DNA from: Octopus vulgaris
Taxonomy: Eukaryota
Direction: 5' to 3'
Assembly (NCBI GenBank): GCA_951406725.2
Contig: OX597832.1
Location: 38,068,001 to 38,132,000 of the forward strand
DNA length: 64,000 nucleotides
The notes below the pieces were generated by a model. It made no database searches, was not told the DNA's origin, and saw only the letters and a list, made by a program, of their open reading frames with translations. The position numbers and the translations under genes are program-made. The first letter of the stretch is position 1. Each line of letters starts with the position of its first letter. Below are positions 13,644 to 13,844 of the stretch, one piece after another.

Positions 13644-13841
13644 GATCTATCATGGTCAATCGCCATGATAGATCGTTAGCCACTAGACACATTTTTTTCT
13701 CTCTTTGTTTTTTCTGTGTCCCTTTCTGTAGAAGAGCATAGGCTCGAAACGTAAAATACTTCTATTCCTGGGCGTTATACTAATGCATCTGTTTGTTTTG
13801 TACACCATCTGTCTTCGTCTTTTGTTTTTTTCGTAAACTGT

Positions 13842-13844
<3 letters not shown>
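13644..13844 (+). mobile_element. ~200 bp HHR-like element (family H2) in (TA)n with a 12 bp 5' inverted duplication
   Basis: Homologous to 37241-37416 (-), 45510-45691 (+) and 43755-43822 (-); TTT-CTGTAGA-A-GAGC-ATAG-GCTC-GAAA-CG-TA-AAA at 13723-13756; hairpin GATCTATCATGG/CCATGATAGATC. Confidence 0.75.

Follow-up and report, generated by a model that had tools for sequence, protein, structure and literature searches.

The window analysed here, a stretch of 64,000 nucleotides of Octopus vulgaris DNA (contig OX597832.1), contained three copies of a repeat designated H2, each 175-200 nt long and set between microsatellites, together with a 3' tail fragment of H2 and two copies of a related repeat, H1. 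In each of the three H2 copies a hammerhead motif was found in which position 6 of the core, A in the consensus, was U (A6U). The features are as follows.

7265..7473, minus strand: H1 copy, with the U4C core CCGACGA at 7397-7391
13644..13674: inverted repeat with 12-bp arms (13644-13655 / 13663-13674), 5' end of H2 copy 1
13660..13844, plus strand: H2 copy 1, a 5'-truncated pLTR end of a Penelope-like element (PLE)
13722..13759, plus strand: minimal type I hammerhead motif of H2 copy 1, architecture as in PMC4209133
13722-13725, plus strand: copy 1, helix I 5' arm
13726-13732, plus strand: copy 1, core CUGUAGA, with U6 at 13729
13733, plus strand: copy 1, extra A after the core
13734-13745, plus strand: copy 1, helix II, followed by GAAA at 13746-13749
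13750-13751, plus strand: copy 1, CG, followed by UA at 13752-13753, with the predicted cut after 13753
from 13754, plus strand: copy 1, helix I 3' arm
13765..13775, plus strand: downstream motif common to H1 and H2, in some folds a predicted alternative partner of the helix II 3' strand
30016..30218, minus strand: H1 copy, with the canonical core CUGACGA at 30145-30139
37239..37415, minus strand: H2 copy 2, with the core CTGTAGA at 37365-37359 and U6 at 37362
43753..43818, minus strand: H2 3' tail fragment, which ends before the hammerhead and lacks the motif
45503..45689, plus strand: H2 copy 3, with the core CUGUUGA (CTGTTGA) at 45569-45575 and U6 at 45572

After the core, all three copies showed one extra purine, helix II GAGC/GCTC (with GCTT as the 3' strand in copy 3), GAAA, a two-base remnant of helix III and UA. 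A reading of the window made beforehand from its letters (the sequence-only reading) had stated that the three U6 cores keep helix II, GAAA and UA, which was correct, and that they keep helix I, which held for copy 2 only: in copies 1 and 3 a T replaced the G closing the fourth of its four pairs. This G-to-T change at helix I position 1.4 (window sites 13757 and 45600) was present in 19 of 250 H2 copies, across subfamilies, and likely reflects a mutation hot spot after an A run. The palindromic CG was lost by CpG-type decay from copy 2 (ACA) and copy 3 (ATG). Compared with shuffled sequences the window copies gave folding z values of 0.0, -0.8 and -1.8; none folded better in the hammerhead shape, and the fold of the copy with -1.8 was not a hammerhead. 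Since the three copies fold no better than shuffles, the case made below rests on the H2 family and not on these copies. Among the best 150 of 316 Rfam matches to the window there was microsatellite noise only and no hammerhead.

Copy 1, of the subfamily A_main type, was flanked by microsatellites and ended in (TA)n; copy 3 belonged to an older subfamily. The 12-bp inverted repeat at the 5' end of copy 1 is likely a short inverted piece of the kind typical of PLE insertions, at which inversions have been described (PMC8557442). Adjoining copy 2, perfect inverted arms of about 22 bp enclosed a (TA)n stretch at 37137-37232. They are likely two facing ends of another repeat; Rfam microRNA matches to them were below threshold.

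The Penelope-like element behind the repeat

The three window repeats are 5'-truncated pLTRs of a Penelope-like retroelement that encodes a reverse transcriptase (RT) and a GIY-YIG endonuclease, with a cysteine linker between them. The H2 repeat is the pLTR end of an autonomous element and no free-standing family, a point missing from the sequence-only reading. Long H2 copies continued upstream for some 0.8 kb, as far as the final part of the GIY-YIG frame; the hammerhead motif followed the endonuclease motifs, which close the RT-GIY-YIG frame, at a distance of 0.7-0.9 kb. With a 230-residue piece of the GIY-YIG frame as query 18,103 candidates were obtained, of which 150 were scored; many of these had identical scores, and their open frames reached 1,211 codons. 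Of 50 loci selected through the frame, 45 had the motif downstream on the same strand, every time with T at position 6, and 11 had two or three motifs at a spacing of 4.44-4.58 kb. Full-length units of 4.5 kb with open frames exist, and both of their end repeats carry the U6 hammerhead. Inside the 64-kb window no PLE frame was found. A non-LTR retrozyme, which consists of non-coding tandem repeats bearing type I hammerheads and lacks a frame of its own, was also considered and was ruled out because the motif belongs to a coding element.

The element protein matched RVT_1 at residues 415-604 (E 1e-7) and GIY-YIG at 835-868 (E 0.007, below the Pfam cut-off), and contained the motifs DKG at 337, YIDD, CX4CX2C at 797 and YIGQTG. 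It had 1,223 relatives, many of them with RVT_1 plus GIY-YIG. One long frame for RT with a GIY-YIG endonuclease at the C terminus, a partial-tandem pLTR layout and many 5'-truncated copies with scattered 5' ends are the marks of an EN+ PLE, and DKG with a CX2-5CxxC linker before the endonuclease is that of Neptune. By the features defined in PMC8557442 the element is an EN+ Penelope-like element, probably of the Neptune type. It resembles the Neptune clade described there in the order of RT and C-terminal GIY-YIG, in DKG, linker and partial-tandem layout and in its (TA)n targets. Nematis, too, has a linker, in reduced form.

In full-length units the frame, of 1,020-1,210 codons, lacked an early ATG and in several had its first Met at codon 49; an intron or a non-AUG start is possible. 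A long pyrimidine-rich stretch precedes the frame (L304:421-1150). At some loci only, H2 ends formed short tandem arrays, with four copies each and a period of about 230-275 nt at L005 and L020 and a period of 492 nt at G000:C8:18600693-18602189; these arrays resemble those of non-LTR retrozymes. Elsewhere H2 ends were paired on opposite strands within about 1-3 kb (L038, L101/L102, L278, L302), as described for PLE insertions. Rfam matches to the full unit were microsatellite noise only, with no hammerhead, and a relaxed scan of the unit gave no second convincing hammerhead, only two weak antisense core-like strings that had no cut-site triplet.

Position 6 and the constraint on the motif

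Genome-wide counts were made on the 2.8-Gb assembly (227 contigs, about 30 of them large), with the remainder of the hammerhead motif matched exactly. Among 18,484 such matches position 6 was U in 17,753 (96.0%), A in 229 (1.2%) and C or G in 502 (2.7%). A reversed-pattern control gave 0 matches against 17,753, and the abundance of U6 matches is not due to chance. The claim of the sequence-only reading that the U6 variant had propagated with the H2 family was thus borne out, and the opposite outcome for which it had allowed, a majority of copies with A6, was not observed. Bases other than T occurred at about the frequency that decay after insertion would produce. At position 7 all four bases occurred among the exact matches. 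Read against the consensus CUGANGA ... GAAA, the H2 core failed at position 6 only and every other core base fitted; the A6U hammerhead in H2 differs from the published PLE minimal hammerhead at one base of this rule.

A second sample was chosen by the tail motif, which is no part of the hammerhead and had 21,196 matches; the copies were taken from the earliest of these places on contig 1. It comprised 69 copies, 15 of which ended before the motif; T was found at position 6 in 52 of the other 54, a set that included 3 poorly registered copies and 1 counted twice. In the contigs of four runs, which carried four organism codes, the element was the same, and no difference was listed at position 6; as none was listed at the variable N7 either, this comparison carries little weight. 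Lunse et al. 2017 is said to hold about 150,000 PLE hammerhead variants. No report of a natural A6U was found in the literature at the level of titles and the opening parts of abstracts, and the collection of Lunse et al. could already contain it.

For the history of the motif 265 copies were aligned, some of them chosen deliberately because they had A6, C6 or G6 or a long frame. Markers set by hand placed 218 of the copies in ten subfamilies, which left 47 unassigned. Divergence from the subfamily majority dropped from 11.4% to 0.9% over the ten subfamilies, and the listed part of a tree of 220 copies gave the same ladder, which was treated as a chain with an oldest group of four members. U6 was already the majority in this group (3 of 4). 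Because the oldest H2 group has U6, and H1 and the rows compared in the published alignment have A6, U6 was probably derived at the base of H2. Small clusters with A6 occurred inside H2 and may be revertant side branches, but the sample had been enriched for A6, and the excess of a G7 context was slight (25 of 100 as against 14 of 100, by eye).

Over the nine subfamily steps the 76 outside columns changed 50 times. At that rate about 20 changes would fall in the 31 constrained columns of the hammerhead, and 0 were seen (Fisher p=3e-6). This difference indicates that the motif was kept under selection after the fixation of A6U. The sequence-only reading had allowed that the helices might be conserved no better than the flanks; in fact the motif was the more conserved along the master lineage. 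Within the 38-nt motif only N7 (6 times) and N17, the cleavage-site base (4 times), changed, and both are positions at which a hammerhead is free to vary (p=0.03). N17 was A, U or C in the subfamily majorities and G in none, an observation that rests on four changes. Two bases bulging from helix I varied too. Three CpGs of the block had decayed in 10-32% of inserted copies (worst base) and in no majority. The features of the PLE minimal hammerhead, namely helices I and II, the extra base after A9, the palindromic 15.2-16.2 and a NUH cut site, were present in 10 of 10 subfamily majorities.

It might be argued that the block is conserved as DNA, being an internal promoter or an endonuclease target, or that U6 hitch-hiked in a successful master. 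Promoters in PLE pLTRs are mentioned in PMC11167929, and the substitutions of a master are inherited by every copy family. Hitch-hiking, however, leaves unexplained why 0 changes were seen and not about 20, and a DNA motif accounts neither for the free N7 and N17 nor for helix I pair 2.4-1.4, at which 208 H2 copies had C-G and 26 H1-type copies had G-C. We regard both versions as hardly credible.

A second alternative deserves more attention. Loop II and a 20-nt tail block, the latter being the anchor for selection of the copies, were invariant as well, so the conservation may reflect protein binding. The main rival to a working ribozyme would then be a dead one, the fold of which is kept as a binding site of the RT-endonuclease and positions the internal initiation of reverse transcription. 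The invariance of loop II, equal to that of the core, fits this explanation, which we nevertheless think rather unlikely. The free and the fixed positions match the catalytic rules of the hammerhead exactly, as a binding site need not: all four bases occur at N7, G is avoided at N17, and C3-G8 and G12 are unchanged. Moreover, the minimal protein-binding region of an anole element is described as lying mostly downstream of the core (PMC11167929).

The sister family bears on the same question. The sequence-only reading had suggested a common ancestry of H1 and H2, and the helix II stem and the downstream motif are indeed common to both. The latter (reverse complement TTCCTGAGCGT), with one mismatch allowed, was found in the window at 13765 and 45612 on the plus strand and at 37323, 30099 and 7349 on the minus strand. 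In H1 the core was mostly U4C (CCGACGA, 9,509 of 14,870 exact matches genome-wide), and this independent fixation of U4C is a further point in favour of a dead fold. Some relatives further removed (L119, L229, L249, L294) had U4C too, and it is known from a viroid (PMC3088659). As a possible trace of an autonomous partner of H1, one H1 copy (L198) lay 1.7 kb behind a 57%-identical piece of the endonuclease. A second U6 family with an H1-type loop was considered and rejected: it gave 352 matches, and the 100 listed were nearly all point mutants of the H2 loop.

The predicted effect of U6 and the predicted cleavage site

In predicted 46-nt folds of four subfamilies the probability of pair 6-15.1 was 0.42-0.98 with U6 and 0.00 with A6. 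The pair U6-A15.1, beside G5-C15.2 and U4-G16.2, is predicted to close the monomer into an inactive hairpin and to weaken the uridine turn. In 90-nt folds the closing helix formed only in the youngest subfamily (P 0.76; 0.02 or less in the others). A common explanation, by which H1's U4C and H2's A6U would both stabilise one inactive hairpin, was tested and failed for H1 (P 0.01). In the youngest subfamily U17 makes the palindrome of helix III six bases long instead of four (L304:4789-4790), which could stabilise the dimer at the cost of pairing the cleavage-site base.

Published work describes what a change in this part of the core can do. A natural A6C hammerhead is slow and active, at less than 0.1 per min (PMC3088659); A6C keeps good activity with Mn, the preferred metal, and in one ribozyme it gave 3.6e-6 per min at 0.3 mM Mg (PMC7151607). 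In a deep pairwise mutational scan of another hammerhead every single change in the CUGA turn led to low activity (PMC9901934). The hammerhead of the anole PLE cleaves only with its protein, and its catalytic mutants are unimpaired in insertion in vitro (PMC11167929).

If the predicted site were cut before copying, insertions might be expected to begin there. Read-through copies were collected at 79 distinct places (84 rows, from 70 of 153 read-through matches and the long-frame loci). None of the 79 had its 5' end at the predicted cut; 74 ran through it and 5 started downstream. As 74 of 79 insertions were copied through the cut, their templates must mostly have been uncut or re-ligated. Short copies joined to (TA)n were compared at 34 distinct junctions, all in the 30 nt upstream of helix I position 1.4 and classed by eye in the first 100 rows. 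Eight of the 34 were compatible with the cut, which is above a uniform share (p=0.017); a second site with TA microhomology accounted for 5 of 34, and the excess at the cut was not above it (p=0.29). The other end of the short copies fell at an internal run of TA, some 105-110 nt past the predicted cut. These ends fit an internal initiation of reverse transcription, as in the anole element (PMC11167929).

Copying through the cut site is again what a dead ribozyme would predict. The same explanation can point to an anole element with a dead hammerhead that inserts normally in vitro and to RNA-seq in which ends at the anole cut are reported as not seen (both PMC11167929), and also to the Naiads, reported to have spread without canonical hammerheads (PMC8557442).

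The two pLTRs of one locus were compared in 27 pairs, 12 from long loci and 15 of 20 further pairs. Seventeen of them showed no substitution between neighbours over about 275 nt. Differences within pairs were 0.48 upstream and 0.19 downstream of the cut, as against 1.25 and 0.90 between insertions, and wherever markers were readable the members of a pair agreed in their subfamily markers to either side of the cut, six pairs with minority haplotypes among them. This agreement fits copying from one unit-length or circular RNA, which has been proposed as the source of both repeats (PMC4209133); template jumping would give the same result. Full frames diverged by 0.13% at the DNA level, measurable at 3 of 20 loci. 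The lineage is young, recently mobile and intact.

The homogenised pLTR pairs could also be taken to mean that U6 is a fully active alternative core, by way of a compensating contact or another metal ion, and that RNA circles are the normal template. The Mn activity of A6C (PMC7151607) agrees with this, as do longer-than-unit insertions, which fit the rolling-circle copying proposed in PMC4209133. Against it, a compensating change is not visible in the core, pairwise mutagenesis found no rescue in the CUGA turn (PMC9901934), and linear RNAs produced by cutting would be expected to give 5' ends at that site, which are at most rare. We consider a fully active core improbable.

The reading that we favour, and judge somewhat probable, is that the U6 hammerhead is an attenuated and possibly protein-assisted putative ribozyme, with A6U held through the whole sampled history. 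The sequence-only reading had left the choice between an active core variant and a catalytically dead fold retained as an RT-recognition signal; the evidence leans towards an attenuated ribozyme. The explanation for the persistence of such a core may lie in the way the element is copied. Reverse transcription would start about 105-110 nt downstream of the predicted cut, and with an internal start in this position the copying of a whole element requires a template that is uncut or re-ligated at the site. Since copying would begin downstream of the 3' motif and then traverse it, a fast-cutting core would lose copies and a slower one would have the advantage. What cleavage is left, in the dimer state or when the element protein is bound, may sometimes release or circularise unit-length RNA, and such occasional cleavage could be what keeps the catalytic bases under selection. 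More tentatively, A6U may represent a recurrent, selected 'slow' setting, in which templates stay whole and protein-helped cutting still yields enough of the unit-length or circular RNA from which both end repeats are regenerated; U4C in H1 would be a parallel case.

Relation to known hammerheads

The closest known system is the minimal hammerhead of metazoan PLEs (Cervera and De la Pena 2014, PMC4209133), which shares with H2 its pLTR position behind the RT-EN frame, the extra base between A9 and G10.1, the pair G10.1-C11.1, a short helix I, the palindromic C15.2-G16.2 without a helix III loop and the thousands of truncated solo copies. An Acropora digitifera Neptune motif in Fig. S3 of that paper is close to H1. 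The rows of this figure that were compared, however, have A6, which the descriptor required, and the core variant reported was U3-A8; H2 has U6 fixed in an intact, recently mobile lineage and a 4-bp helix II. A natural change at position 6 with reduced Mg activity is the A6C of phage Bcep176 (Perreault 2011, PMC3088659; Naghdi 2020, PMC7151607). There the base is C and not U, in a single phage sequence, as opposed to the roughly 18,000 exact copies of H2 under constraint.

PAc, a Poseidon element of Anolis (PMC11167929), resembles the octopus element in that reverse transcription starts about 85-110 nt downstream of the hammerhead cut, in its AT-rich targets and in templates that are apparently uncut. 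PAc has C3 and G8 intact and cleaves in the presence of its protein. Its frame starts inside the motif, whereas in the octopus element the motif is followed by a long untranslated stretch, and PAc belongs to Poseidon, whereas the octopus element has a cysteine linker.

The role of the hammerhead in PLEs is debated, the candidates being cutting and circularisation of the RNA, help to the protein, or no more than passenger status (PMC4209133, PMC8557442, PMC11167929). Because in H2 the core rule was broken long ago, the rest was kept through ten subfamilies and intact young copies exist, this role becomes directly testable. H2 offers a natural mutant together with its protein and a sister family with a second core change. 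Descriptor searches that require CUGANGA miss whole, very abundant families of PLE ribozymes. If the fold is dead, H2 would cleanly illustrate the conversion of a ribozyme into a structural signal. If A6U is a slow setting, this intact young element would for the first time allow a mutant hammerhead core common to a whole natural family to be tested with its protein.
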